A DNA stretch of 64,000 nucleotides from Planctomycetota bacterium (GCA_016235865.1 JACRIK010000027.1:26213-90212), one strand, 5' to 3'. Shown: positions 3,137 to 58,549, counted from the first letter of the stretch. The notes: generated by a model not told the origin, from the sequence alone. Program-made: numbers and translations.

Positions 3137-3347
3137 TGGTCAATTTTGCCACAGAGACACAGAGAACGCAGAGCGACTGCGGAGTAGATACGAAGCGAAC
3201 ACGGAGAAATGCAACCACGAATGGACACAAATAAACACGAAAGAGAACTCCGCAGAGACCGTGAAGCGAACACGAATGGCACGAATAGGAGCGAATTACA
3301 CGAATAATTATTAACCACAGATGAACACAGATGGGCGCGGATGATTT
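3137..3347. repeat. Intergenic spacer between convergent genes, built from reiterated octamer-like units (ccacagag, cgcagag, cacgaatg, ccacagat, acacagat): a REP-like repeat family
   Basis: Read directly. The same words and their reverse complements recur in other spacers (4020-4050, 13585-13656, 33590-33680, 34355-34425, 46480-46545, 55530-55620, 56740-56850). Confidence 0.5.
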
Positions 3348-4138: not shown

Positions 4139-6271
4139 TTACGCCAGATAGCCGTCGGTTTGAATCTTGCAGAGGTTGTGATAGACGCCCTTCTTTTCCA
4201 TCAGTTCCTGATGATTACCGGTTTCTTTTATCTCGCCTTTGTGGATGACATAGATGCGGTCAACATTCTGGATGGTTGATAACCGGTGCGCGATGATGAT
4301 AGAGGTCATTTTCTTGACCATCTTCTTAATGGCTTCCTGGATGTAATACTCGGTTTCCACGTCCACTGATGAGGTAGCTTCGTCCAGTATCAGGATAGAC
4401 GGTTCAAAGGCCATGGTCCGGGCGAATGCCAGCAACTGGCGCTGGCCGCCGGAAAGGGTCATGCCGCGCTCGCCGACCCGGCTGTCGTATTTGTTGGGCA
4501 TCTTCTCAATAAAGGTGGAAGCGAAGATATCCTCGCAGACGTCTTTTACTTTAGCCGGGGTGACGGCGCTATCCCAGAGCGAGATGTTGTCGTTGACCGT
4601 GCCGGCGAAGAGGAAGACATCCTGGAGCACGATGCCCAATCTGCGGCGCAGGTCCTGCTGGCTCATATCCTTGATGTTAATGCCGTCAATCAGAATCCGG
4701 CCTGAGTCGACATCATAGAATCGGCAGAGCAGATTGATAATTGTAGATTTGCCGCTGCCGGTCACGCCGACAAAGGCAATGCTTTCGTTCTTCTTTATCT
4801 TGAACGAGATGTTCTTCAGGACCGGCTTGCCCGGCTCGTATGAGAAGGTGACATTGTCAAACTCTATTTCGTGCCCCTGCGGGTCTTCTTTCAGTTCCCG
4901 GGGCAGGGCCGGGTTCCGGACATCAACCGGCGTATCCAGTATTTGGAAGATGCGCTCGGCCGAGGCCATGGCGCCCTGGAACATCAAATACTTATCAGCC
5001 AGGTCCTGAATCGGGCCGAAGAAGTTAATACTGTATTCCATAAACGTATAGATTACGCCGATTTCAATGACGTCGTTTAAAGCCAATCCGCCGCCGAAAT
5101 ATAAAATCAGGGCAATGACCGAGCCCCGGAGTATGGAGACCAGCGGTATAAAAGTTGACTGGTAAATCAGGGCCCGGCGGGACAGGTCATAGTGCTCATA
5201 ATTGATGCCGGAGAATTTATTGAGGGTCTTGGGCTCCTGATTGAATGACTGGATGACCTTTACGCCGGACAGGCTTTCAGCCAGATAGGCGTTTAATTGA
5301 GCCAGTTTCTTGCGCATGTCCCGGTAGGTGGTTCTTAATTTCGGTTTGAATATCATGGTTATGATGAGCAGGGGGATTACGGCGGACAGCGCAATCAACG
5401 CCAGTTTATAGTTCAGCCAAAACATGACAACTGCCAATACGACAATTATAAATATATCATTCACTACGGTAACCATGGCCGTGGAAAGGAAATCACCCAG
5501 AGCATTAACATCGTTAGTCACCCGGGTAATCAGCCGGCCGACCGGCTGTTTGTCATAAAAGCCCAGGGACATCTGCTGGAGATGCCCGAATGTTTTCATC
5601 CTGATATTAAAGATAATCTTTTGGCCCAGTTTTGACATGGAGTAATTCTGCCAGATGCTCAGGAGCAGGCAAATAACCAGATTGGCCAGGATAATCAGGG
5701 CGATAACGATAAACTGGCGCCGGTCAAACTTATCGGACGTAATCTTTAGTTGAGGGGTTTCGGCCGGGTATAGCAATTCCAGCGCATTTCGGTTGAGCCG
5801 TTTTATGACTTTCTCGCCTTGGGCTCCTTTTATCCGGCCGTAAAGATTGGCCAGGTCTTTAGCTGCCTTATCTGAACTTGGTTTTCTTATTGTGATTAAT
5901 TTTGCAATCGCGTCTTTTTGGTTTAGTAAATTATTGAGTTCCTCAACCGTATCATTCTGAATAACAACCCCATCTATCCTGAGCGCGTCACAGAGATTCT
6001 TGACGGAAAATTTGCCAGTATCAGTGGGGCTGATCGCGGGCTGGTCGGTAAATTCATTGTCAGAGAAGTCGGACACAGGCACAAGTTCATTTAACGCCAA
6101 ACCCTGTAATCTCGGGCCGAGGGCCACGGATAATATAGTCAGAACAAATGTCAGGAAGATAAGCACGATTATCTGTCCGGTAAAGGGCTTAGCAAAGACC
6201 AGGAGCCGTTTGGGCAGGCTCAGGTCATACTGCTTGTCAACAATGTCGTCTTCTTGGTGATACGCTTGCAT
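4139..6271 (-). CDS. ABC transporter, fused permease/ATPase (MsbA-like exporter), 710 aa, with a roughly 130-aa extracytoplasmic insert between TM1 and TM2
   Basis: Walker A GVTGSGKST, ABC signature LSGGQRQ, Walker B ILILDEATS, and six transmembrane helices in the N-terminal half. Confidence 0.85.
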   Translation of the reverse strand: MQAYHQEDDIVDKQYDLSLPKRLLVFAKPFTGQIIVLIFLTFVLTILSVALGPRLQGLALNELVPVSDFSDNEFTDQPAISPTDTGKFSVKNLCDALRIDGVVIQNDTVEELNNLLNQKDAIAKLITIRKPSSDKAAKDLANLYGRIKGAQGEKVIKRLNRNALELLYPAETPQLKITSDKFDRRQFIVIALIILANLVICLLLSIWQNYSMSKLGQKIIFNIRMKTFGHLQQMSLGFYDKQPVGRLITRVTNDVNALGDFLSTAMVTVVNDIFIIVVLAVVMFWLNYKLALIALSAVIPLLIITMIFKPKLRTTYRDMRKKLAQLNAYLAESLSGVKVIQSFNQEPKTLNKFSGINYEHYDLSRRALIYQSTFIPLVSILRGSVIALILYFGGGLALNDVIEIGVIYTFMEYSINFFGPIQDLADKYLMFQGAMASAERIFQILDTPVDVRNPALPRELKEDPQGHEIEFDNVTFSYEPGKPVLKNISFKIKKNESIAFVGVTGSGKSTIINLLCRFYDVDSGRILIDGINIKDMSQQDLRRRLGIVLQDVFLFAGTVNDNISLWDSAVTPAKVKDVCEDIFASTFIEKMPNKYDSRVGERGMTLSGGQRQLLAFARTMAFEPSILILDEATSSVDVETEYYIQEAIKKMVKKMTSIIIAHRLSTIQNVDRIYVIHKGEIKETGNHQELMEKKGVYHNLCKIQTDGYLA

Positions 6272-36054: not shown

Positions 36055-36151
36055 AATTATCGCCTACACCTCAACTATCTATGGCTATCTGATGGGTAGT
36101 GATGCATTATAACATTTTTTGACGCTCCCCCGTCTTATATGAACAGGTAGC

Positions 36152-36410
36152 GCTTATCATACCAAGAAACGGCGCCTACGATACCAAGCAGTATGGTATA
36201 TAACTATCAGAACTGGGGTTTAGTTTACCAAGAAATAGGGCTTACCATACCAAGAAGAGGCGCTTTATTTACCAAAAAGATGGGCTTATCATACCAAGAA
36301 CAGGGGCTTTAGCTATCAAGCAGTATGGTATATAACTATCAGAACCGGGGCTTAAGTTACTAAGAAATATGGCTTATTATACCAAGAGTTAGGGCCTATA
36401 ATATCAATAA
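36152..36410. repeat. Tandem repeat array with 22-bp base period (units like ataccaagaaNNgggcNtta) organised as two roughly 132-bp higher-order copies. A G/C-run tract lies at 36411-36450
   Basis: gcttatcataccaagaa recurs at 36152 and 36284 (132 = 6 x 22). The array is followed by gggcggggggttagtctaatgggggtggggcacctcccccc. Confidence 0.8.
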
Positions 36411-36539
36411 GGGCGGGGGGTTAGTCTAATGGGGGTGGGGCACCTCCCCCCTGCCAAAGTAAGTGGTTGATTTATATGGGGATGGGGAAACGGAAATAGC
36501 CGAAAATAGATATTTTGAATGGTTTCTTAAGAGGAAAAG

Positions 36540-45085: not shown

Positions 45086-45136
45086 AGACAAGATTATCTC
45101 TACGCTATACGCTATACGCTCTACGCTATACGCTCT

Positions 45137-46273
45137 ATGCTGTATTTCCGTATCATTGACGTCAATGCCAATCGGGCGCGGGAGGCAACCCGGGTTATAG
45201 AGGATTACGCCCGCTTTATCCTGGAGGATGCGGTCTTGAGCGCCAAGGCCCGGAGCATTAGGCATCAATTAGTAAATATCCTCAAGCCCTGCGCTCGGCA
45301 GATGCTGGCCAGCCGGGATATTCAGGCCGATATCGGCAAGGAAACCGCGACATCAGCCAAGACAACCGCTGAGATTGTCATCAGTAATCTCCGCCGGTTA
45401 AGCGAGTCATTACGCAGTATTTCAGAGTATTCTAAAACTATTATTAAAGATAATCTGTGTAAATCTGCTTGCACTGAGCAAAGCGAATGTGTGTCATCTG
45501 TGGTTAGGGATGTTGAACGCCTGCGCTTTGAGGCATACCAATTAGAACAGGAATTCTCATTTATCCTCTATCCTAACAAGGCATTTGATAAGGTGCGTCT
45601 TTATGTGTTGGTGCCGGGCATCCGGAACGATAAGATTATCAGGGATTTGATTAAGGGAGGAGCAGGTGCTATTCAATTAAGAGTAAATACCCCCTCACCC
45701 TTCCCTCTCCCCTGTGGGGAGAGGATAGGTGAGGGGAGCGGTACCGAATCATTAACCGACAAGAAATTATTGGAGCTGGCTGTAAAGTTTCGGAAGATTA
45801 CCAGAGCGCATCAGGCCTTGTTTATTATCAATAACCGGATTGATATTGCTTTGTTGAGCAATGCAGACGGCGTGCATCTGGGCGCCACTGATTGTTCTGT
45901 CCGTGACGCTCGCAAAATATTAGGGCCGGATAAGATTATCGGCGCCACCAGCCATTCCATTGCCGAGGCGCTGGACGCCCAGCGGAACGGGGCTGATTAC
46001 GTCTCGGTCGGTCCGATGTTCTCGTCGCCCACCAAGCCGCATCTGGCGCTGGTTGGGTTCAGTTATCTCAAGGAGGTGGCCAGGAAGATACATATTCCCT
46101 ATGTGGCTATCGGCGGCATCACCGCAAGAAATCTGCCGGTTCTGTTGAAGGCGCATAAGAGGTTATTTAAAGAACCGCTCAAGATTGCGGTTTCATCGGG
46201 GATTCTCAACAGCAAGAATGTATCAGAAGCAACAAGGCGGATAAATAAAATACTTAACCACAAGGGACATTAA
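45137..46273 (+). CDS. thiE: Thiamine-phosphate synthase (ThiE) domain with an unrecognised roughly 160-aa N-terminal domain, 378 aa. The ThiE domain is interrupted in frame by a palindromic element
   Basis: ThiE motifs AIQLR ... FIINNRIDIAL ... ADGVHLG ... IGATSHS ... GADYVSVGPMF. The insert VNTPSPFPLPCGERIGEGSGTES sits directly after QLR. Confidence 0.75.
   Translation: MLYFRIIDVNANRAREATRVIEDYARFILEDAVLSAKARSIRHQLVNILKPCARQMLASRDIQADIGKETATSAKTTAEIVISNLRRLSESLRSISEYSKTIIKDNLCKSACTEQSECVSSVVRDVERLRFEAYQLEQEFSFILYPNKAFDKVRLYVLVPGIRNDKIIRDLIKGGAGAIQLRVNTPSPFPLPCGERIGEGSGTESLTDKKLLELAVKFRKITRAHQALFIINNRIDIALLSNADGVHLGATDCSVRDARKILGPDKIIGATSHSIAEALDAQRNGADYVSVGPMFSSPTKPHLALVGFSYLKEVARKIHIPYVAIGGITARNLPVLLKAHKRLFKEPLKIAVSSGILNSKNVSEATRRINKILNHKGH
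45691..45736. repeat. 46-bp palindromic element inserted in frame within thiE (cccctcacccttccctctcccc tgt ggggagaggataggtgagggg). It is the inverse-orientation copy of the uvrB element
   Basis: The 22/21-nt arms are reverse complements of each other. Positions 45716-45736 are the exact reverse complement of uvrB 1683-1703. Confidence 0.75.
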
Positions 46274-46365: not shown

Positions 46366-46579
46366 TTAGAATTACTTGTAGTGAGTGACCCACAGGGTCC
46401 CAGTGGGAAACGAATCTATCTGTTTAATCAGTGTAATCCAGTTGTTATCATTTAATTTCTGGGGCAGTATATTTATTATTCATTCGTGTTTATTTGTGTC
46501 TATTCGTGGTTGCTGTTTTCCTTGTTTATCTGTGGTTTCAAAATCTTGACTTGTGTGGCTGGAAAGGTTAATTAGTGTT

Positions 46580-47478: not shown

Positions 47479-47715
47479 ATGAATAAAGAAAGAGCGCTGG
47501 CGGTTTTTGAAGATTATAAAATCCGCCGGATATATGATGAGGCGTCAGCCACCTGGTTCTTTTCATTGGTGTATATCATCGGGGCGCTGATTCAGCAGAC
47601 GGATTATAAATCGGACAGAAACTATTGGAAGGTCTTAAAGAATCGACTAAATAAAGAAGGCAGTGAGTCGGTTACAAAATGTAACCAACTGAAACTAGCC
47701 GACGCGATAAAGTAA
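47479..47715 (+). CDS. Small protein (78 aa) resembling the N-terminal Bro-N/KilA-N-like domain of DNA-damage-inducible protein D (DinD), apparently truncated
   Basis: FEDYKIRRIYDEASATWFF ... DYKSDRNYWKVLKNR is similar to E. coli DinD FEEIRHYGTEGQEFWSARELAPLLDYRDWRNFQKVLARA (from memory). Good Shine-Dalgarno sequence aggag. Confidence 0.4.
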   Translation: MNKERALAVFEDYKIRRIYDEASATWFFSLVYIIGALIQQTDYKSDRNYWKVLKNRLNKEGSESVTKCNQLKLADAIK

Positions 47716-47815: not shown

Positions 47816-47842
47816 GGTGGGGGAGGGGGTATGGTGGGGGGT
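47816..47842. repeat. G-run tract ggtgggggagggggtatggtgggggg (potential G-quadruplex-forming) directly upstream of the third 22-bp array
   Basis: Four G runs of 5-6 nt, read directly. Confidence 0.5.
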
Positions 47843-47851
47843 AGTACCCTT

Positions 47852-48137
47852 GGCGCTACGGAGGTACGTTATCGGCGCTATGGAGGCACGTCACCGGCCC
47901 TACAGAGGTGCATTCCAGGCGCTACAGAGGTGCATTCCAGGCACTACAAAGGTATATTCCAAGCATTACGAAGGTATATTCCAAGCGCTACAAAGGTATT
48001 CTCCAGGCATTACGAAGGTATGCTTCCGGCGCTACGAAGGTATGCTTCTGGCGTTACAGAGGTATGCTCCAGGCGCTACAGAGGTATGCTTCCGGCGCTA
48101 CGGAGGCACGTCACCGGCGCTATCATCGGTGTATGCT
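47852..48137. repeat. Tandem array of about 13 copies of a 22-bp unit (ggcgctacagaggtatgcttcc and variants) immediately upstream of the Type III mod gene
   Basis: Exact 22-nt period across 47852-48137. The three overlapping ORF-track entries 47777..48151, 47817..48218 and 47908..48186 are reading-frame artefacts of the repeat. Confidence 0.9.
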
Positions 48138-48223
48138 CACCATACGGATAGGAGGGCAAAAAACAAAGTATTTATTGCTTTTTTAATGAAGGCGGGTATG
48201 ATTATTACAAAGGAGTAATATTT

Positions 48224-49810
48224 ATGCCATCACTAAATTTTAAGGGTAAGAATGCAGTTTGGAATCATCATTTGTCCGTTCCATACCAGATACTGGAAAA
48301 GGATAAGAAGCTGTCACTCAAAGGCAAGAATGAGGATGAGAACCTGATTATAGAGGCGGATAATCTGGTCGCGCTAAAAAGCTTGTTACCGAAATATCAG
48401 GGCCGGATAAAGTGTATTTACATAGACCCGCCATATAATACCGGCAATGAAAATTGGGTTTATAGCGATAATGTCAGCAGTCCGTTAATAAAAGAATGGC
48501 TAAAAAAAGGGCCTGTTGGTTCTGAGGATTTAACCCGTCACGACAAATGGCTTTGTATGATGACGCCTCGCCTTAAACTTCTTCGTGAATTGATGAGTGA
48601 GGATGGTGTCATATTTGTTAGTATTAACGACATTGAGAGTTCTCATGTGCGTATGCTAATGGATGATATATTTAATGGTAATTTTATTGGTATGTTAATA
48701 TGGAGGAAAAAAGAGGGTGGAGGACAGACTGACGATTACTTTGTAACGGAACATGAGTATGTTCTTGCGTATGCTAAATCGCCAGATTTTAAATGGGTTG
48801 ATGAAACAATTCCGATAGATGAGGCAAAATTCAAGAAAGAAGATAATGACGGAAGATTTACTGCGGTTAAACTTGCTAAATGGGGTTCTGGAGCACGGAA
48901 AGAAGATCGGCCAACGATGCATTTTGCAATAAAATCTCCCGACGGTAAAAATGTGTATCCAAAAGCACCAGATGGGAGTGCTGGAAGGTGGCGCGTTGGG
49001 AAATTAACAATGGATAATCTTCTGGAAAATGGATTAGTCTACTGGGAGGAAAAAAATGGCGATTGGGTGGCCTACGAGAAAATCTATTATGACGAAGAAG
49101 ACGTTAAGACAATTAAAGAACGGAGCATACTATACGAATTAGCTTCTACTGGTGATGCCACGAAGGCGCTAACTGAGTTATTTGGGAAAAAGGATATATT
49201 TGAAAATCCTAAGCCAGTTGAACTTACTAAATTCTTAATGCGATATACCACTGATAAATCTTCAATTATTCTTGATTCCTTTGCTGGTTCGGGAACAACA
49301 GCCCAGGCGGTTTTAGAGTTAAATAAAGAAGATGGTAAGGAGGGGAATAGGAAAGTCATTTTAATTCAACTGCCAGAAGAAATTAGGAAAGATAAGCCAG
49401 CATATAAGGCTGGGTATAGATATGTTCACGAGATTACAAGAGAGCGCGTTAAACGAGTGATTGAAAGAGATAAATTGGGTGTTGGCTTTTCATACATGAA
49501 TCTTGGATCACAGATTGATGCGGATTCTATCTTATCAGGCAAGTTGCCAACCTATAAAGAGTTTGCCAAGTATGTTTATTATCTGGCAACCGGAAAGACA
49601 GGCAACGAGTCAATTTACCTTATATATGAAAAGGACAAGGACAAACTAAAGAAGCTGGCAATTACGCTTGAATGGGCAGAGCAGACAAACAAGAAAGACA
49701 AGGGCAAGAAGATTATCTATGCCCCGGCCTGTTTCATAGATGAAGAATACCTGGAGAAGTTTAATATCCATTTTGTGAGTATTCCTTATAATCTCTTTGA
49801 AAAGAAATAG
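48224..49810 (+). CDS. mod: Type III restriction-modification system methyltransferase (Mod), N6-adenine, beta-class, 528 aa
   Basis: Motif IV DPPYNTGN N-terminal to motif I DSFAGSGTT. Strong Shine-Dalgarno sequence aaggag. Followed 3 nt later by the res gene. Confidence 0.85.
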   Translation: MPSLNFKGKNAVWNHHLSVPYQILEKDKKLSLKGKNEDENLIIEADNLVALKSLLPKYQGRIKCIYIDPPYNTGNENWVYSDNVSSPLIKEWLKKGPVGSEDLTRHDKWLCMMTPRLKLLRELMSEDGVIFVSINDIESSHVRMLMDDIFNGNFIGMLIWRKKEGGGQTDDYFVTEHEYVLAYAKSPDFKWVDETIPIDEAKFKKEDNDGRFTAVKLAKWGSGARKEDRPTMHFAIKSPDGKNVYPKAPDGSAGRWRVGKLTMDNLLENGLVYWEEKNGDWVAYEKIYYDEEDVKTIKERSILYELASTGDATKALTELFGKKDIFENPKPVELTKFLMRYTTDKSSIILDSFAGSGTTAQAVLELNKEDGKEGNRKVILIQLPEEIRKDKPAYKAGYRYVHEITRERVKRVIERDKLGVGFSYMNLGSQIDADSILSGKLPTYKEFAKYVYYLATGKTGNESIYLIYEKDKDKLKKLAITLEWAEQTNKKDKGKKIIYAPACFIDEEYLEKFNIHFVSIPYNLFEKK

Positions 49811-49812
49811 AT

Positions 49813-52299
49813 ATGATTCTAAAGGATTATCAGATAGAGGTCATCGATAAACTAAAAGAGTTCTATACCGAGGCGGAAAAACAAAAGAGCGAGGTAGAGA
49901 AGTCAAATGATAAGGTTTTAAGAGAATCTGTTTCTTATGTTGATACTGTTTATACTAAGCTTGACCTGCATTTTGCCGACCGGCCTAAGAACGGCTTAGG
50001 ACAATCATATACCCGTTTTTGCCTGAAGATTCCGACCGGCGGGGGCAAGACCCTATTGGCAATTGAGGCCATCCGGGAATACCAAAACCTATTCGCCAAG
50101 AAAAGAACCGGGTTAGTGGTTTGGATAGCGCACCGCGAGACCATCTACCGCCAGACCATAGAGAAACTCAGGGATAAAAATCATATCTACCGCCAGTGGC
50201 TGGACCAATGCAGCGGCAACCGGACCATTATTCTGGAAAAAGGACAGCCGTTACGGATGCAGGACACGGACAGCAATCTGGTGATTCTGATGCTGATGAT
50301 TCAGTCGGCCGGAAAGAAAACCAAGGAAAATATGAAGGTCTTTCAGGACAGCGGCAAATATATTGACTTCTTCCCGCCGGATAACCAATACGAGGAGCAT
50401 GAAAAACTATTAAGGAGGGTCCCTAATCTTGATCCTACCCCTGGTGATGTATTCGGCAAGAGAATAATAAAGACCAGTTTAGGCAACATAATCAGGATGG
50501 AGAATCCGCTTATGATTGTGGATGAATTCCATACGATGTTTTCGGATATTGCCAAAAGCACGTTGGACGGCTTAAACCCATCAATGATAATCGGACTGTC
50601 GGCTACGCCCAAAAAACGGGAGGGCATGAATATTTTTATAGAAATTACGGGCAAGGCGCTTAAGGACGAGGAGATGATTAAATTAGATATGCACCTGCAT
50701 TCGCCGACTACCAGCGGAGATTGGCATGAAATGATTAACAGCGTCAGAAAGAAAAGGGAGACGTTGGAAAAGACAGCGACTGACTTTAACCGTAATAAGG
50801 GGATATATATCAGGCCGATAGCATTGATACAGGTAGAGCGAACGGGTAAAGACCAGAGGGGAAAAGAATTTGTGCACAGCGAGGATGTGCGCGAATATCT
50901 GGTTGCGCAAGGAGTTCCGGCTCATCAAATCGCGGTAAAATCAAGCGAAATGGATGAGATTAAAGAGGAAAAACTCTTATCGCAGACAAGCGAAATCAGA
51001 TACATCATTACCAAAGAGGCGTTAAAAGAGGGCTGGGATTGTTCATTTGCCTATGTTTTAGGGGTGATACCCAATGCCAGGTCTGAATCCTCAATGACCC
51101 AGTTGGTCGGCCGGATATTACGCCAGCCGTATGCCAAGAAGACCGGGGTGGCGGAATTGGATGAAAGTTATGTCTATTTTAACCAGGGCGATACGGAAGA
51201 TGTCCTGCATAACATCCAGCGCGGATTTGTAGAGGAGGGTTTGGGCGATTTGGTCCAGAATATCAGCCGGGAATCAGGCCCGACCGGCTCGGACAAGATA
51301 AAAACAAAGATTAAGAAAGATATTCTCAATAAATATCCTGAGTCGTTATATCTGCCGGTCTGGCTGGTTAAGGAAGATAACAAATACCGGCGGTTCTCTT
51401 ATGATATTGATATCAGGCCCAGGATTAACTGGCAAAACGGGCATTACGATAAATGGCTGGAAAAAGAAATCCTGCCTTTGCTTAGCGCGAAATCATCCGC
51501 TTATGAATATATAGTTGATTTGGACAATCGGCATGAAAGGCGGGATTTGGATGAGATGGATGAGGGCGTTTTTGATATTTCATACCTAACCCGCCGGATA
51601 TCCGATGTGGTTGATAATGCCTTTATTGCCTTTGACCTGGCTCAGGAATTTATCTCGGCCGGCGATAAATACAAAGACAGGCAAAAACTGCTAATCAACA
51701 GTGGATTCATTATCAAGGAAATCGTCAAGAAGTTGTCAGATGAAAAAATCCAGCAAGAGCAATTAATATTTGATTCATTACTGAAAGGCAAGGAATTAAT
51801 GCTGGCGGTCAGCGATGACGAGCAGGTCGGGTATTCGTTGCCGAAAAATAATGAGGTCTATCCGGAATATGCCGAGACATATAAACTGAATCTTTTTGAG
51901 AAGTCGGATATAAAATCAATGAATTCGCTGGAGCGGAGAATTGCCGGTTCTATTGATAATAAGAAAAATGTAATCTGGTGGGCGCGGAATATAGCCAGCA
52001 GCAGGAAATGGTATGCCATAAGAGGTTGGAAGAGAGGCAAAATCAGGCCTGATTTTATCGTGGCCAGGAAGAATAAAAGCGATGCGTTGGAACTCGTTTA
52101 TATCATTGAGAGCAAGGGCGAACATTTAATTGGCAATCCGGATACGATTTATAAAAAGAGCGTATTTGATAAGATGAATCAGGAAACCATTGAACAGGTA
52201 ACCCTGAAACTAATCAAGTTTAAGCTGAATAAGGACTTTAGGTTTGAACTGGTTGAGCAGGGACAGGAAGATATTGAGATAAACAGATTCTTTAATTAA
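49813..52299 (+). CDS. res: Type III restriction enzyme Res subunit (SF2 helicase domain plus C-terminal PD-(D/E)xK nuclease), 828 aa
   Basis: Motif I KIPTGGGKT, motif II MIVDEFH, helicase C-domain, and C-terminal RPDF ... ELVYIIESKGEH endonuclease motif. Confidence 0.85.
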   Translation: MILKDYQIEVIDKLKEFYTEAEKQKSEVEKSNDKVLRESVSYVDTVYTKLDLHFADRPKNGLGQSYTRFCLKIPTGGGKTLLAIEAIREYQNLFAKKRTGLVVWIAHRETIYRQTIEKLRDKNHIYRQWLDQCSGNRTIILEKGQPLRMQDTDSNLVILMLMIQSAGKKTKENMKVFQDSGKYIDFFPPDNQYEEHEKLLRRVPNLDPTPGDVFGKRIIKTSLGNIIRMENPLMIVDEFHTMFSDIAKSTLDGLNPSMIIGLSATPKKREGMNIFIEITGKALKDEEMIKLDMHLHSPTTSGDWHEMINSVRKKRETLEKTATDFNRNKGIYIRPIALIQVERTGKDQRGKEFVHSEDVREYLVAQGVPAHQIAVKSSEMDEIKEEKLLSQTSEIRYIITKEALKEGWDCSFAYVLGVIPNARSESSMTQLVGRILRQPYAKKTGVAELDESYVYFNQGDTEDVLHNIQRGFVEEGLGDLVQNISRESGPTGSDKIKTKIKKDILNKYPESLYLPVWLVKEDNKYRRFSYDIDIRPRINWQNGHYDKWLEKEILPLLSAKSSAYEYIVDLDNRHERRDLDEMDEGVFDISYLTRRISDVVDNAFIAFDLAQEFISAGDKYKDRQKLLINSGFIIKEIVKKLSDEKIQQEQLIFDSLLKGKELMLAVSDDEQVGYSLPKNNEVYPEYAETYKLNLFEKSDIKSMNSLERRIAGSIDNKKNVIWWARNIASSRKWYAIRGWKRGKIRPDFIVARKNKSDALELVYIIESKGEHLIGNPDTIYKKSVFDKMNQETIEQVTLKLIKFKLNKDFRFELVEQGQEDIEINRFFN

Positions 52300-52335: not shown

Positions 52336-54183
52336 ATGTATTTCACAAAGCCCGTTTTAGCGGTAATCAAAAGAGTTATAAAAGACCTGAAAACCCGGAC
52401 AGAACTTGATAACTTATTTGAATCGTATGGCTTTGATCCTAAAAAAGATTGTGATGTTGGCAATAAATTAAATCTGGCTGGTTCATATTTAGACCATCAA
52501 GATTGGAGTGATGGAACAACGGCACATAATTTATTGGAGCTTTTGACCGAAGTTCTTCTGGGCGAGAAAGAGTCAGATACCTATCGCTGGCCCCAGGTGG
52601 AATTAATGCTTAACGCGCTAATTAAAGACAGCTATTACTGGATTAATAAGAATAAGAAATTTATCAGACAAGGTGAGCCATTTCCGCAACCCGCATTAAA
52701 TAAACCTGTTGAGCAAAAGCCTTCTGCGGAGAAGACGCCAGCTATTTTACCAGAAAATACCGGGGAGATAGCAGGAAAATACGTTAAAGAGATTCTTGAT
52801 AGGGAAAGAAATAATTTATTGTTTATAAGCAAATTCCTGGTTGATATAAAGCCCTTCTGGAATGACTGGCAATCATTTAAAGTAAAACTTCTTACAGTAC
52901 TTAACAATGAGAAAAAACGGATTATTATTAACGGGCAGGTTATCTTAGAGGTAAGTCCGATTGACTCTAAGGAAAAGCCCATTCTCCTTGAAATAGATAA
53001 TTTTTTCCAGGGCATTACTTTCCGCTATCCTTTTGCTGAATTAGAAGGATTCCTTAAAAACCTTATGACCGGCAAGGTGGTTGCTCAGGGAGAAGAATAT
53101 CATTTTGTGAACACCTCTCTTGGGCCATACGGTCCGGTTTGGGTGAACTACGCATATGATTACCCCGCACCAGTGAGCATGATAGAATCATTGAGCGGTA
53201 AAACAGCGTTTGCCATAGATTACAACGGAGATAAACTCTCAAACATTCTTGATAATACCAAAATTAAATGGCAGGACTTTTACCGGACTTGTCGGGGAAA
53301 AGGTTATAATGACCCATCTTACTTATTTAGATTATTCTTCGGATTAAGGGATGCTTATGTTACCAACGATTACCAGACCCAAATATGGATATATGCACCA
53401 ATTGATGTTTATATCAAGGAGTTTAAACCGCTTAAAAATAAATTGTCGGCCGTTATCTGGGCTGGCCCGTTAATAAAGCCGGATAATGTTGCATTGCGAT
53501 TTGTTCCCAGTAGGGAATCCCTTCCAGAACAAAGACCGGAATTTAAGCTGTCTGATTTTTCGCCACAAGGCAATTGTTTGTACCAGAAAGATATCCCAGC
53601 TGATTTTGATCAAACAGCTTTTATTGATTTAACCTATAAGGAAAAATTATTTTCAAAGGAACTTGAAATGCCGACATCTTCCGAAGATAAGCCCATTACT
53701 TTATCTATGGCAAAGAAATCAAAGATAGGCGCTAAAAATACTACAATTATTCATATGCCTAAAGGAACTAAGCCCAATGATATTACTTTTAGATTTAAAG
53801 ACCGCCGAACGATGGATGTTTTACTAAAAGATAATACCTTTAAGAGTAATGTATCATTTGATGAACTTGGATTTCAAAAGCAAAGCACCGGCAAAAAGAA
53901 GAAATCAGAACCAAGTATGCTATGGGAATTATTGGTAACGATGAGTGTAAATTATTCTAACCCGGGTTGGTCTTTTAAGGACAAGTCCACTAAAGGAAGG
54001 CAGCAGATAAGTTTACTTAGGGACAAACTTAAAACATTGCTAAATATAGAAGACGACCCCATTCCACTTAATTCTGAATTAAGAGGTTATCGCCCGGAAA
54101 TTCGTCTTGAGCCGCCACCAGATGAGCGACATCATTCCTATATAAATCCTGACGAAAAAGAGTCTGATTTGGAAGACGAGTAA
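52336..54183 (+). CDS. Hypothetical protein, 615 aa, no recognisable domain. Co-oriented immediately downstream of res within the AT-rich island
   Basis: Long ORF with AT-rich codon usage like mod and res. No Walker, nuclease or transmembrane motifs recognised by eye. Acidic, Lys-rich C-terminus. Confidence 0.6.
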   Translation: MYFTKPVLAVIKRVIKDLKTRTELDNLFESYGFDPKKDCDVGNKLNLAGSYLDHQDWSDGTTAHNLLELLTEVLLGEKESDTYRWPQVELMLNALIKDSYYWINKNKKFIRQGEPFPQPALNKPVEQKPSAEKTPAILPENTGEIAGKYVKEILDRERNNLLFISKFLVDIKPFWNDWQSFKVKLLTVLNNEKKRIIINGQVILEVSPIDSKEKPILLEIDNFFQGITFRYPFAELEGFLKNLMTGKVVAQGEEYHFVNTSLGPYGPVWVNYAYDYPAPVSMIESLSGKTAFAIDYNGDKLSNILDNTKIKWQDFYRTCRGKGYNDPSYLFRLFFGLRDAYVTNDYQTQIWIYAPIDVYIKEFKPLKNKLSAVIWAGPLIKPDNVALRFVPSRESLPEQRPEFKLSDFSPQGNCLYQKDIPADFDQTAFIDLTYKEKLFSKELEMPTSSEDKPITLSMAKKSKIGAKNTTIIHMPKGTKPNDITFRFKDRRTMDVLLKDNTFKSNVSFDELGFQKQSTGKKKKSEPSMLWELLVTMSVNYSNPGWSFKDKSTKGRQQISLLRDKLKTLLNIEDDPIPLNSELRGYRPEIRLEPPPDERHHSYINPDEKESDLEDE

Positions 54184-54677: not shown

Positions 54678-55472
54678 ATGGGTACTATCAGTGAAGTGAA
54701 ACTGGCGGTTCTGCTGGGTATAGCAGAGGCCGGAGAGGTCCAGGTGGAGCGCTGGAAACGGGGCACCAAGAATAACGCTGACCTGACCTACCAGCAAATG
54801 CAACAGGCAATCGGCAACGAGTCCGATTATAAGTCCAAACTGGCTCTGCCGGCGGCCACGGCCTACGCGCCGGCGATGAATCCGGCTTTCGTGTCTCGCT
54901 CAGGTCTGGACCGGAACCGGATTGTCCGCAAGCAGGCGGATAACATCAACCAGGGCTACAATAATTACGCCGCTTCTCTGGCCCAGGCGTTTGAGACCGT
55001 GGATGGCGAACCGGCCAAGCGCTATAAGGAGGCGATTGACGCCTCAGCCGAGAATTACAGCCAGAAGGCGGCCCGGAACGTTCTGCCCTTTACCGGGTCG
55101 CGCGAACTGGGACTGGGCATCGCGCCCATCGCTTCAAGGTGGCTGACCGGCGATATTACGACTGAACGGCTGCTCAGGGGCGATGACCAAATCGGCCTGG
55201 GCGGGCCAATCAACGTGGCCCGGGTGACGCCGGATATGCGGACGGCCCTGAAGGCGGCCATCACCAACCGGATAGTCCAGTCAGGCAAGGTGCTGATTAG
55301 CGCGGATTGGGACCCGGCCGTAATGGTCCAGGAGAACGACCATATCAATAACCTGATTGCCTCTTTGCAGGACGCGGCTTATGTGGCTTTTGCCACGGCC
55401 GGGGTCTCGCATTGCGATTGGATTGTGATAGACGGCCGGAAATACCTGGAGATAAAGGTGGCAACAGTGTAG
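54678..55472 (+). CDS. Hypothetical protein, 264 aa, GC-rich, possibly phage-structural-like
   Basis: ORF whose GC content is visibly higher than the adjacent RM island. No motif recognised. Confidence 0.5.
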   Translation: MGTISEVKLAVLLGIAEAGEVQVERWKRGTKNNADLTYQQMQQAIGNESDYKSKLALPAATAYAPAMNPAFVSRSGLDRNRIVRKQADNINQGYNNYAASLAQAFETVDGEPAKRYKEAIDASAENYSQKAARNVLPFTGSRELGLGIAPIASRWLTGDITTERLLRGDDQIGLGGPINVARVTPDMRTALKAAITNRIVQSGKVLISADWDPAVMVQENDHINNLIASLQDAAYVAFATAGVSHCDWIVIDGRKYLEIKVATV

Positions 55473-55633
55473 GAAATGCGGAATGCGGGGTGCGGAATTA
55501 ACCGTGCCCCGCTTCCCTTTAATTAAAACAAAATACGAACACGAATGGGACGAATAGGAACGAATGGTACGAATGAATATTATTCGTGTGATTTATCTTA
55601 ATTCGTGTGATTCGTGTTAAAAGGAGTTGATTT

Positions 55634-56728
55634 ATGTCATTAAAACCAAATGAGGTAAAAACCAGTAACATCGCGACCTATGCGGTCACGACATCAAAGA
55701 TTGCCAAGAGCGCGATAACCACCGATAAGATAGCCGACGGCGCTATTACCAGCGCTAAGTTGCAGGAGGATTGCGTCACTACTAATAAGATAAGTGATAT
55801 GGCAATCACCAATGATAAGATTGCGGATAGGACGATTACCCAGGATAAACTGGTACTGCCGATAATTCCGCCATCGCCGATTACCAGGCCGATTTCGCCG
55901 CAGGTGGAGAGCGCTGAAATCAAGGACGGGGCGATTGTCCGGGCCAAGATTGCCGTCAATGCGGTGGAGAGCGATAATATCAAGGACCTGAATGTCACCA
56001 GCGGGAAACTGGCGTCCAGCGCGGTGACCAACGCCAAGATTGCGGATAACGCAATAACCGCATCTAAGATTGCATCTAATGCTGTGGGTTCGAGCGAGAT
56101 TGCGGCTAACGCAGTTGGGACGAGTGAGATTGCTAACGGCGCCGTGACGCCTGAGAAACTGTCGTTTGTGCCGGGCGGAGCGGTGAGACCGTTAACACCG
56201 CCGGTTACTACAGCAGAAATCGGTGATGGACAAGTGACCGGGCCGAAGATTGCATCTTCGGCAGTAGGCAGTAGTCAGTTGGCAGTAGACAGTGTAATAA
56301 CTGAGAAAATCCTGAATGGCGCGGTTACTGCTGAGAAGTTAGCGCCCGGCGTGGGCGGAGGCGATACCCTGACCATGTTCCCAACGCCACAGACCGCGCT
56401 GGACCAGGGCGGCATCACGGCCACGACCGTACCGGCCACGGTTGACCTTTCCGCAATTATCCCGGTCGGCACCAAGGGCGTGATTGTCTCAATCGCCTGT
56501 ATCACCCAGAGTTATACGGATGGCGGGATGATGGCGTACGTCTTCAGGCAACTGGGCGCGGAATATGCCCTGCAGGTCGGAGCTCCGCCGGTTAATGCGC
56601 CGGGGATTAGTAACGGTGGCTCAGTCCTGATGCCGGTGGCGGCTGATAGGACGTTGCTTTGGCAAGCCTATGTATCAGGAAACAACTCAACCGAGCTGGT
56701 AATCTACATTTTAGGTTATGTTGTATAG
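55634..56728 (+). CDS. Repeat protein, 364 aa: about 20 tandem 11-residue repeats (consensus x-K-I-A-x-x-A-V/I-T-x-x) followed by a Gly/Ala-rich globular C-terminal domain. Phage tail-fiber-like architecture
   Basis: Repeats read directly (KIAKSAITTD, KIADGAITSA, KIADNAITAS, KIASNAVGSS ...). No signal peptide. Confidence 0.6.
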   Translation: MSLKPNEVKTSNIATYAVTTSKIAKSAITTDKIADGAITSAKLQEDCVTTNKISDMAITNDKIADRTITQDKLVLPIIPPSPITRPISPQVESAEIKDGAIVRAKIAVNAVESDNIKDLNVTSGKLASSAVTNAKIADNAITASKIASNAVGSSEIAANAVGTSEIANGAVTPEKLSFVPGGAVRPLTPPVTTAEIGDGQVTGPKIASSAVGSSQLAVDSVITEKILNGAVTAEKLAPGVGGGDTLTMFPTPQTALDQGGITATTVPATVDLSAIIPVGTKGVIVSIACITQSYTDGGMMAYVFRQLGAEYALQVGAPPVNAPGISNGGSVLMPVAADRTLLWQAYVSGNNSTELVIYILGYVV

Positions 56729-56854
56729 GGGTTAGAGGTTAAGAATTGGGACGCAGATTTCGCTGATTTACGCAGATAAATCCTGATAATCTGTAAAATC
56801 TGCGTTTATCTGCGTTCTATTTCTCGGTCTCTGCGGAGTTTATCTGTGGTTACC
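56729..56854. terminator. Convergent-gene spacer composed of cgcagat/atctgcg and atctgtgg octamer units forming nested hairpins (acgcagataaatcctgataatctgtaaaatctgcgt). Candidate bidirectional terminator
   Basis: Inverted repeats read directly. Same unit family as 3137-3347. Confidence 0.4.
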
Positions 56855-58549
56855 TTACACCTCCATCTTCCGGATAGTTCTCAAGCCCAGCCAGACCGAG
56901 AATCCGGTAGTGACGATGGCAATGGCCGAGATGACTATGATACTGATGGTCTGCAGTTTTCTGAAGGTGTCTTCATTGATACGGCTGGTCATATAATAAA
57001 TATGCGAAGGCAGACTGCCGATGACGATAATTGACAGGACATAGAGCAGGGACAGGACCAGGGTCAGGGTGCCGCCGAATCCAGAGACAATCTTGGACGG
57101 GTTATCCTCGCGCATATTGGGATACAAGACGCCTAAGGTCACGGCGATGGATGACAGTCCCAGGCATATCAGCAGGGTCAGGTAGAGATGGTGCAGGAGC
57201 ATAAACGAAGGGACCTCCAGCTGGTATGAGGAGATAAACACCAGCGGTTCGCTGATAAGGATTGAACCGGCTAAAGCAAAGACCAGCTTGCTGTAGAAGA
57301 TATCCTCGCGCTTTAAGGGCATCATGCCAATTATCCAGAACCGTTTGCCTTCCAAACTGATTTGCGGATAGACGAATCGGGTAGTAAAGGTGGCGAGAGT
57401 CAGGGTGGTGGCAATCAAATTGAGCGATGAGACCAGGTACTGCCACATATGTTCCTGCAGGTTGATATAGGGGATATTCTTGATATTGATGAAATAAACG
57501 CCCAGCAGGCCGAAGAAGATGAGAAGTTGGGTCCATTGGGCCGGGTCGCGCAGCAGGGTCTTGATGTCCTTGATGATGACCAGACGCAAAGGCCGGGCCA
57601 GGAATCCGAATGACAGATTGGCCAGCCGGTCCAGGAGCGAGACCGGGTTATATTTCTTGTCACGCCTGGATGAACGCACCAGGGAGTATCCGGTAAAGTA
57701 AAATGCTGAGGCCAGCCAGTACACTACCAGGCTTAGGAATAATACCTGGGCCAAAAGGAGCAGGAAGAAAAACACGGTGTCCGGCAGTCCGGCCAGGTCT
57801 ACGGAGCTGAACAGACCTTGGGTAACCCAATAACTGGGCAGGAGCGGGTTCTGGGCGAATGAGAGATTGCTCATGAATTTCTGCATCCAGCCGGCTGAGA
57901 ACGCAAAACTGGTGCCCCGCAGGCCGGACATCTGGGTGATGATGAAAATCACCGCAATCGCCATTAGGCCGATAAGTCCTATCAGGAGCGCCCGGCGATG
58001 GCGCGGCAGGAACCGGCCGATGACGATGCTGAACAGGCTCCCGATCAGCGCCGGCAGGATGATGAATACGGCTGAAAACAGGAAGGTCCAAACGTAGAAT
58101 AGCCAGTTGGCCTGGCGGTCTATGCCAAAGGCAATCAGGAGCGGCGAGCCCAGGAACAAGAACGCCCAGGAGGAAAAAGCAATGGATTCGGTCAGTTTAT
58201 AGAAGAATATCCGGCCCGGCGAAACCGGCAGTGACATCAGGTAATCCGCCTCGGCGGAATGGAAGAGCGAGGAATAATTGATAATGATATTGCTGATGAC
58301 CAGCATCAGCCCCAGGGCAAAGAAGAACAGGGCCAGAAAGTAGAGCCGGACCACGTCCACAATTTCCTCGACAAACCGGTGGAGGAATCCGAATGATTCG
58401 CGGAAGAATACAAAAATGCTCACCCAGAGGACCAGGGCTGATACCGAGACGATGATGAATTTAAGTTTGTTGTCGTCCAGTTGCTGGGCGGCCTGGTTGG
58501 CCAGGGCCCGGGACCGGAATTTATAAAGCGTGGCAAGTGTTGTCATCAT
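56855..58549 (-). CDS. Polytopic ABC-2-type exporter permease-like membrane protein, 564 aa
   Basis: At least 12 hydrophobic helices. Translationally coupled (29-nt overlap) to the upstream ABC ATPase. Confidence 0.65.
   Translation of the reverse strand: MMTTLATLYKFRSRALANQAAQQLDDNKLKFIIVSVSALVLWVSIFVFFRESFGFLHRFVEEIVDVVRLYFLALFFFALGLMLVISNIIINYSSLFHSAEADYLMSLPVSPGRIFFYKLTESIAFSSWAFLFLGSPLLIAFGIDRQANWLFYVWTFLFSAVFIILPALIGSLFSIVIGRFLPRHRRALLIGLIGLMAIAVIFIITQMSGLRGTSFAFSAGWMQKFMSNLSFAQNPLLPSYWVTQGLFSSVDLAGLPDTVFFFLLLLAQVLFLSLVVYWLASAFYFTGYSLVRSSRRDKKYNPVSLLDRLANLSFGFLARPLRLVIIKDIKTLLRDPAQWTQLLIFFGLLGVYFINIKNIPYINLQEHMWQYLVSSLNLIATTLTLATFTTRFVYPQISLEGKRFWIIGMMPLKREDIFYSKLVFALAGSILISEPLVFISSYQLEVPSFMLLHHLYLTLLICLGLSSIAVTLGVLYPNMREDNPSKIVSGFGGTLTLVLSLLYVLSIIVIGSLPSHIYYMTSRINEDTFRKLQTISIIVISAIAIVTTGFSVWLGLRTIRKMEV

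Follow-up and report, generated by a model that had tools for sequence, protein, structure and literature searches.

The locus considered here raises the question of what a 22-bp tandem repeat array is doing immediately upstream of a Type III restriction-modification (RM) gene pair, mod and res, in the chromosome of an uncultured member of the Planctomycetota. The array, termed array C in what follows, lies in a stretch of 64,000 nucleotides (GCA_016235865.1, JACRIK010000027.1:26213-90212) which was analysed as a whole and is referred to as the window. The original prediction was that gain or loss of repeat units could switch the RM genes on or off or, alternatively, that the array binds a regulator. 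Our analysis points to a different answer: array C, its G-rich head and its AT-rich tail very probably constitute a discrete non-coding module of about 350 bp (module C), which is older than the RM genes, is under purifying selection, and belongs to a class of 21/22-bp arrays with G/C-run heads that extends across the lineage. We infer that array C is not a fast copy-number switch for mod-res, and a role as an on/off switch for the RM genes appears unlikely.

Structure of the module

Module C begins with its head, GGGGGAGGGGGTATGGTGGGGGGTAGTACCCTT, on the + strand at 47819-47851, in which three G runs, GGGGG (47819-23), GGGGG (47825-29) and GGGGGG (47836-41), are arranged as GGGGG-A-GGGGG-TATGGT-GGGGGG (47819-47841). 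A period-22 array was reported by Tandem Repeats Finder (TRF) at 47852-48122, with 12.3 copies and 79% matches; listed in register, this resolves into 12 full tandem units on the + strand (47852-48115), with the consensus GGCGCTACrrAGGTAyryTyCm, followed by a degenerate 13th unit, GGCGCTATCATCGGTGTATGCT (48116-48137, + strand), the counterpart of which is GGCAGTATCATCGGTGTATGTT in one relative (L022), a related block being present in a second (L031). The tail (48138-48180, + strand) consists of CACCATAC, then GGATAGGAGGG, then an A-run/T-run block, and was delimited by homology to the tails of the same two relatives, which read CCTATA-GGGGG-...AAAAAnAGGATTTTTGTT; this homology stops at about 48177. 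The end of unit 12 and the terminal unit together form the inverted repeat CACCGG...CGGTG, in which the changes seen in L022 are confined to the loop, and CACCATAC in the tail is complementary to GTATGGTG at 47829-47836 in the head. The predicted array of 13 units is thus real, if composed of 12 imperfect units and one degenerate one, as is the G-run tract before it, with its three runs of five or six G. The suggestion that this tract could form a G-quadruplex holds for a two-tetrad pattern only, as the head has just three G3+ tracts and therefore lacks the canonical pattern of four such tracts with loops of 1-7 nt.

The conserved core of the array comprises unit positions 2, 3, 6-8, 11-15 and 21 (GC..TAC..AGGTA.....C). 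Its motif GCNNTACNNAGGTA, allowing at most one mismatch, was found 12 times in the window, 11 of these in array C, against an expectation of 1.98 from shuffled sequences, and a count of 12 was reached in none of 100 shuffles. Within the 64 kb the array motifs do not recur as scattered single copies, the sign to be expected of a regulon, and the head and the unit of array C are each single copy in the window. Array C does not stem from faulty assembly: its last 49 nt and everything downstream, the RM genes included, are matched by an independent Logan assembly (L001), and two independent metagenome assemblies (L018 and L022) contain the orthologous array with the order of units unchanged. In the Logan unitig assembly a break falls at 48089, within the array.

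Two further identities for the array were considered and rejected. Its period is not a multiple of three, as would be needed for a coding repeat; all three + frames are open only as the unit happens to have no stop triplets (a chance of about 0.35), and the two other long arrays of the window, A and B, have stops in every frame. The units also run head to tail with no spacers, unlike those of a CRISPR array.

Conservation and constraint in relatives

A pattern scan of Joint Genome Institute (JGI) metagenomes yielded L022 (3037 bp) and L018, which are identical over 1025 bp and in which a module orthologous to module C is present with neither mod nor any other RM gene. Homology between the window and L022 starts sharply at GGGGGAGGGGGTATGGTGGGGGGTAGTACCCTT, proceeds unit by unit and ends about 40 nt past the last unit, and the flanks are unalignable. 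Over 305 aligned positions the modules are 86.6% identical, with a single 22-bp indel (12 versus 11 full units). The ATP-binding cassette (ABC) permease genes of the two share 81% identity as protein and 79% as nucleotide sequence, and 61% of their 219 four-fold sites are identical. All 33 positions of the head are the same in L022, and all of the 31 that compare in L031. Eleven units of array C pair one to one with those of L022, diverging by 14.9% in the orthologous register as against 21-32% in shifted registers and 29.6% between paralogous units of the array. It is within these orthologous units that the constraint is most evident, as the core positions diverge by 4.1% and the remaining positions by 27%, the latter being about 70% of the synonymous rate. 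Compared with four-fold sites, the 11 core positions show about 10 times more conservation. Substitutions in the module are also transition-biased (31:10, compared with 36:49 at the four-fold sites), and its total length falls between 338 and 372 nt across three lineages with different cores.

Such a pattern is the signature of a row of putative equivalent recognition sites with nearly free linkers between them, and is not that of a long base-paired structure, nor of a neutral or rapidly turning-over minisatellite. An imperfect minisatellite with units kept orthologous is unusual for bacterial tandem repeats, and the conservation of the core together with the invariant head points to an unrecognised functional non-coding element in this uncultured group.

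The relationships of the lineages have a bearing on the age of the array. By ABC-protein identity L022, L031 and L033 form a group at 86-95%, from which the window and L030 stand apart at only about 80-83%; because array C is shared by the window and L022 in spite of this grouping, it appears to be ancestral and to have been replaced or lost elsewhere. In L031 the head and tail of the module persist around a different 22-bp core.

It could instead be argued that array C is a neutral minisatellite, produced by slippage or recombination in a hotspot and perhaps seeded by the G tract, with the similarity between lineages owed to recent lateral exchange by homologous recombination in the flanking core genes. 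The near-synonymous rate of the non-core positions would suit this, as would the inversion of the module in the window relative to L022 and L031 and the nature of the surrounding gap, which is hypervariable and contains truncated genes, alternative cargo and many different arrays. Arrays also come and go, with array A absent in L039, the core replaced in L031 and no array in L030 or L038. However, neutrality accounts for neither the tenfold conservation of the core nor a head invariant in three lineages (0.61^33, or about 1e-7), an array of such age should have lost its unit-by-unit orthology through unequal exchange, and, the flanks being unalignable, any recent transfer would need to have moved the module by itself. 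We regard this explanation as rather unlikely.

The mod-res cassette and the question of phase variation

The cassette downstream of module C (48224-52299, + strand) is made up of mod (48224-49810; PADLOC MTase_III, 9e-117; Pfam N6_N4_Mtase), which upholds the predicted Type III assignment, and res (49813-52299; REase_III, 9e-141; Pfam ResIII). It has the character of a low-GC insertion, with a GC content for the RM region of 0.38-0.45 compared with about 0.5 around it, and it is missing from the corresponding locus, between dapB and the ABC permease gene, in the relatives L022, L030, L031, L033, L037 and L038. The closest Mod homologues are found in other phyla (72% identity in an Omnitrophota metagenome-assembled genome (MAG), 67% in others), and no tandem arrays were found near the closest mod homologues. 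Immediately upstream of mod in the closest mod-res homologues is a small HTH_3 gene encoding 60-65 aa (L034, 307-504; L035, 3795-3989), which is the typical place of an RM controller protein. The window copy is without this gene, and because similarity to these homologues starts only at the ribosome-binding site (RBS) and ATG, the cassette lacks the usual control region.

Module and mod are separated by an AT-rich junction (48181-48223, + strand) which includes the RBS, AAGGAG (48210-48215), ahead of the ATG at 48224. The RBS had been placed about 85 nt beyond the array; it is present, but at about 73 nt past the last unit. As had also been claimed, the array and the G tract are the only sequence in the region upstream of mod. 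On the + strand between array C and the ATG of mod, a scan for sigma-70-type promoters and intrinsic terminators, the models of which do not extend to Planctomycetota promoter types, called neither. By eye, a weak sigma-70-like pair can be made out, TTGCTT (48175-80) and TATGAT (48197-202) with a 16-nt spacer, which at 8/12 falls under the threshold of the scanner; array C ends about 60 nt before the -10-like hexamer. As the cassette came without its own upstream region, transcription of mod would start in the roughly 45-nt junction, at the weak promoter-like sequence (48175-48202), or read through the module.

Known phasevarions rely on perfect 1-7-bp tracts, located within the open reading frame (ORF) or core promoter, that change at high frequency (PMC1976455, PMC7394358). 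The locus resembles these in having a Type III mod-res pair with repeats nearby, and differs in that the repeat is a diverged 22-bp minisatellite which predates the genes and has undergone almost no change in copy number between the lineages compared. There is no classical intragenic simple-sequence repeat in either mod or res, the only tracts being two A7 runs and one (AT)4.

For array C to be the phase-variable control of mod-res, slippage by 22 bp would have to alter the spacing or rotation of an upstream site and so turn the RM genes on or off. Its position is certainly suggestive, directly upstream of mod in the same orientation and ahead of a cassette with neither its own upstream region nor a controller gene. 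The window and L022 do differ by exactly one unit; however, this is a single one-unit difference across 39% divergence at four-fold sites, and the arrays of two metagenomes are identical. The break at 48089 in the Logan assembly could reflect population heterogeneity. Structural variants at intergenic tandem repeats are reported to abound in Planctomycetota MAGs (PMC9426551), and some copy-number polymorphism may occur. Against this, array C is a poor substrate for slippage, its units being 79% alike with no exact repeat longer than 21 nt, and since 22 bp amounts to about 2.1 helical turns, the predicted rotation of a promoter by unit gain or loss would scarcely occur. The module also occurs in relatives without RM genes, in L022 and L018 and, as head and tail, in L031, and it predates the cassette. 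The array is thus not a feature of the RM system, the claim that its copy number switches that system was largely not sustained, and phase-variable control is very improbable. A repeat before a Type III mod should not be taken for a phasevarion until it has been established whether the repeat belongs to the RM genes, and here it does not.

Sister arrays in the window and the clade

Only three long arrays, A, B and C, were detected by TRF in the 64 kb; all have a period of 22 and their units are unrelated. Sister element A (329-730, + strand) has a G7/C-run head (329-364), 12 units of 22 bp (400-663; TRF 400-667, 12.2 copies) and a GGGG/T-run tail, and the array lies 360 bp upstream of uvrB. 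Its unit is TTAGTTTTGAACTAACATAATC, containing the palindromic core TTAGYTTTGARCTAA. Sister element B (36116-36451, - strand) has about 11 units of 22 bp (36160-36401; TRF 36160-36387), with the unit TACCAAGAAGAGGGGCTTATCA and a 44/132-bp super-period, and a G/C-run head (36415-36451) that includes GGGGGTGGGGCACCTCCCCCC; it sits between convergent genes for a Ser/Thr kinase and an aminotransferase. Clusters of G5+/C5+ runs number four in the window, three of which are within about 60 bp of an array end. The existence of A and B makes the combination of a G/C-run head with about 12 units of 22 bp a property of the genome and not of the RM locus, and the unrelated genes beside them are a further point against a phase switch. 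B and C share a TTTTTGACGCT motif in their upstream regions, the placement and direction of which are inconsistent among the arrays.

About ten long arrays were seen in the clade, all with a period of 21 or 22. In L022 the orthologue of array C lies downstream of the ABC permease orthologue and beside a second, convergent array of ten 21-bp units (163-374, equivalent to 199-410 in L018). This second array has its own G run, GGTGGGGGGAAGG, upstream, carries ACGGAWG, which is like a CsrA-type GGA site, in every unit, and converges on the array C orthologue across a GC-rich hairpin.

The shared period was compared with predicted DNA shape using a wedge model (parameters of Bolshoy 1991) and the ratio of end-to-end to contour length as the measure. 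Array A is strongly curved (0.655), being more compact than all of 400 random windows, B is moderately so (0.773), and array C (0.961) and the 21-bp arrays of the relatives (0.92-0.98) are straight; intrinsic curvature was accordingly rejected as a general cause of the 21/22-bp period. The common period could stem from shared descent within a head-array-tail family, the cores of which evolve in concert. Array A, having exact repeats of up to 65 nt compared with the 21 nt of array C, is the better candidate for copy-number variation. It was absent upstream of uvrB in L039, the one relative compared, where a repeat protein (116-943) lies directly upstream of uvrB in place of the array. By eye, with no tool comparison, this protein resembles the 364-aa tail-fibre-like protein of the window (55634-56728).

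A platform of binding sites, as DNA or as RNA

With moderate confidence, we read the module as a stable multivalent platform offering 12 equivalent putative binding sites. Each unit would display an 11-position core, GCnnTACnnAGGTA, and a conserved C seven bases on, with nearly freely evolving linkers between, and 12 equivalents of a single sequence-specific partner could be bound side by side. The mod-res cassette very probably arrived with neither its usual HTH controller gene nor an upstream region and was inserted, facing the same way as the module, about 45 bp past the tail; occupancy of the platform could modulate its transcription. The alternative offered in the original prediction, that the array binds a regulator, would fit the pattern of conserved cores and relaxed linkers and to that extent survives. 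Module and platform taken together are judged somewhat probable. A controller-less RM cassette behind the module in an exchange hotspot provides a way to test whether repeat modules are connected with how recently gained defence genes are expressed.

Whether such a platform would act as DNA or as RNA can be argued from several features, and our slight lean is towards DNA. It may tentatively be pictured as double-stranded DNA bearing one site per two helical turns on one face, in the manner of iterons, centromeres or BvgA sites. A period of 21/22 bp, or two helical turns, is kept by all long arrays of the clade despite their unrelated units. Read on the array strand, the head of C is G-rich and those of A and B are C-rich, thus one RNA architecture would not fit all of the arrays. 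Array A is built on a 15-bp palindrome, the half-sites of which vary independently, and because of this neither strand of array A gives clean hairpins: the central pair would be a C-A mismatch in 4/12 units and T-G in another 4/12.

The second picture, which we consider possible but more doubtful, is of a gene for a non-coding RNA of about 350 nt that titrates an RNA-binding protein or another RNA, as CsrB and RsmZ do, with mod-res expressed by read-through. The module has the sharp conserved ends, and the similar total length in three lineages despite different cores, that would be expected of such a gene. Better-than-shuffled folding is seen for its + strand (z -2.2) and not for its - strand (z +1.0), the terminal hairpin CACCGG...CGGTG has been retained, all changes falling in the loop, and GUAUGGUG near the 5' end is complementary over 8 nt to CACCAUAC near the 3' end. 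An RRAGG resembling a Shine-Dalgarno or CsrA site falls in a potential loop of each unit, and ACGGAWG recurs throughout the neighbouring 21-bp array of L022. However, GGA itself is present in only 3/12 units of array C. The transition bias of the module could also be taken as a mark of RNA, but may partly reflect saturation of the four-fold sites. No promoter or terminator was called for the module, and the folds of the three module tails differ, with no consistent terminator among them. Rfam gave no match at its gathering threshold and, at E<=10, only a chance CRISPR-DR match outside the array. The proposed unit hairpin, GC-UAC-RRAG-GUA-U-GC, was no better than shuffles and was rejected; RNAalifold run on two sequences cannot discriminate for it.

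The platform should be considered with caution on several counts. Neither a partner protein nor a partner RNA was found for array C, and each array type would need a partner of its own. Relative to the array, the head has its G-rich strand on the 5' side in C but on the opposite strand in A and B. The module is bracketed by neither a sigma-70-type promoter nor an intrinsic terminator, it has no Rfam match, and the unit hairpin is without covariation support, 86% of cells pairing as compared with 85% in shuffles. The orientation of the module relative to the ABC permease gene is inverted between the window and L022/L031, so that lateral exchange followed by rearrangement could explain part of the high identity, and the different core of L031 and the lack of the module in L030 and L038 imply a function that is dispensable or lineage-specific. 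Lastly, the comparisons cover few genomes, metagenome assemblies throughout.

A broader proposal may be put forward as speculation that is more doubtful than credible: that these arrays form an undescribed class of modular non-coding elements, each with a G/C-run head, about 10-13 units of 21/22 nt and an AT-rich tail, in which every array type would be a decoy or landing pad for a different partner. Such elements would be sited at, and perhaps organise, defence hotspots, and incoming promoter-less cassettes would be expressed through them.

Comparison with known repeat systems

In build, module C is most like the pneumococcal BOX elements, which are composite interspersed repeats of the form boxA-[boxB]n-boxC (PMC3049150), as both have a conserved head and tail around a variable tandem core. 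Like BOX, it is intergenic, lies beside unrelated genes, is of a kind that can influence its neighbours, and clusters with other small repeats. However, BOX copies have the same sequence genome-wide, contain a 45-bp boxB and vary readily between strains, whereas here the 21/22-bp unit is specific to each array, the heads are only loosely alike and unit order is kept over deep divergence. No sign of mobility was found for the module, which in the window is not present in the many same-sequence copies that mark BOX. It may be filed, provisionally, as a new variant of the bacterial composite and interspersed tandem-repeat elements.

Iteron origins such as those of R6K, pPS10 and RK2 have direct repeats of 17-22 bp, spaced at about two helical turns. 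The arrays of BvgA sites at the ptx promoter are likewise phased at about 22 bp (PMC7250471). With R6K and pPS10 iterons, type II parC centromeres and BvgA sites, array C shares direct repeats of about 22 bp, a core and spacer, and two-turn spacing; it differs from these in being chromosomal, in having 12 contiguous sites and no adjacent gene for a cognate binding protein, and in being one of several unrelated arrays. A further difference is that its ancestral site is between convergent genes and is not a promoter.

It is perhaps natural to ask whether array C served a plasmid-like element, now integrated and also carrying the RM genes, as its iteron origin or centromere. Besides the direct repeats, with their conserved core, variable spacer and two-turn phasing, the GC-rich and AT-rich flanks and the adjoining low-GC island are what such an element might show. 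However, the context is chromosomal (lpxK, thiE, dapB), the module occurs in relatives without the island, and the 64 kb contain three different arrays. Among the neighbouring ORFs, those of 615 and 264 aa included, none belongs to a Rep, Par, integrase or relaxase family, and searches returned one unrelated 81-bp match in the plasmid collection and none in the viral collection. This origin for the array is highly improbable.

The likeness to CsrB and RsmZ lies in a length of about 350 nt and a dozen purine-rich motifs, about 20 nt apart, in potential hairpin loops; the differences are the scarcity of GGA noted above, AGG being the constant part, the lack of an Rfam match, and a transcript that is so far a putative one. 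In having several intergenic arrays with unrelated units in one genome, the window is similar to Borgs and to genomes with mycobacterial interspersed repetitive units (MIRU) or variable-number tandem repeats (VNTR), and Planctomycetota have been reported to be rich in intergenic tandem repeats with structural variants (PMC9426551). The tandem direct repeats of Borgs are described as "perfect" (PMC9879509), and are young and fast-evolving, whereas array C is imperfect, old and constrained.

The dapB/ABC permease hotspot and minor repeats

The window is chromosomal, with lpxK, thiE/thiD2 and dapB immediately upstream of the variable region and the ABC permease gene (locus tag HZA49_08580) at 56855-58549. 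Contigs of the permease homologues indicate an ancestral layout in which dapB and the ABC permease gene lie next to each other in convergent orientation, separated by a hypervariable gap. This gap measures only 61 bp in L030 and has small unrelated genes in L038; in L033 it holds C-run tracts, 21-bp arrays and an HNH gene. In L031/L032 the same 31-nt head and a related tail enclose the different 22-bp core, followed by about 30 units of 21 bp in three arrays and by three genes; a peptidase is found in the gap of L031. L037 has four tandem C-run tracts (ATACCCTATCCCCCTCCCCCCTATACCC...) at 4590-4800, on the downstream side of its ABC permease gene. No 22-bp array accompanies them, and the G/C-run head is thus a repeated element in itself. 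A scan of the genome collection with DapB returned only distant Planctomycetota (<=45% identity) with no comparable arrays, and exact-sequence look-ups of the window DapB, 78-aa ORF and UvrB gave no match.

In the window the gap is filled by a truncated ORF, module C, mod-res, a 615-aa ORF, a 264-aa ORF and a tail-fibre-like ORF. The truncated ORF (47479-47715, + strand, 78 aa) corresponds to the N-terminal quarter of a candidate defence protein of roughly 290 aa (PADLOC PDC-S13, 2.1e-20; PDC-S04, 1.8e-19; profile positions 1-74 of 286-292) and matches PHROG 15286 over positions 3-73 of 274; it marks a rearrangement at the edge of the hotspot. The 615-aa ORF (52336-54183, directly after res) and the 264-aa ORF (54678-55472), both inside the low-GC island, had no match in Pfam, NCBIfam, PADLOC or PHROGs. 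The 364-aa protein contains tail-fibre-like repeats (phrog_892, 1.5e-43).

The three consecutive 21-bp arrays of L031 (12332-12956) have an orthologous, much shorter counterpart in L033 (12035-12152), and their units differ by compensating 1-nt indels such that the period is held at 21. A 121-aa ORF was called across the L031 arrays and is probably spurious, and an ORF of 181-193 aa beside the L031 and L033 arrays, a candidate for a partner, has no homologue in the window.

Smaller repeats accompany the arrays. A hairpin similar to repetitive extragenic palindromic (REP) sequences, GGATTCCCGC-TTTC-GCGGGAATGAC, is found beside arrays at 898-925 in the window, about 12220-12244 in L031 and about 11900-11927 in L033, and TACGCTA is repeated five times (21 bp x 2) in the short gap between lpxK and thiE (45098-45141). 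Short clusters of direct and inverted heptamers (ACGAATG/ATTCGTG; GCAGAT/ATCTGC, CACAGAT) occur at gene ends in the window (3272-3305, 46482-46507, 55541-55615 and 56753-56812) and at equivalent places in the relatives (L033, 11695-11728; L039, 1109-1180).

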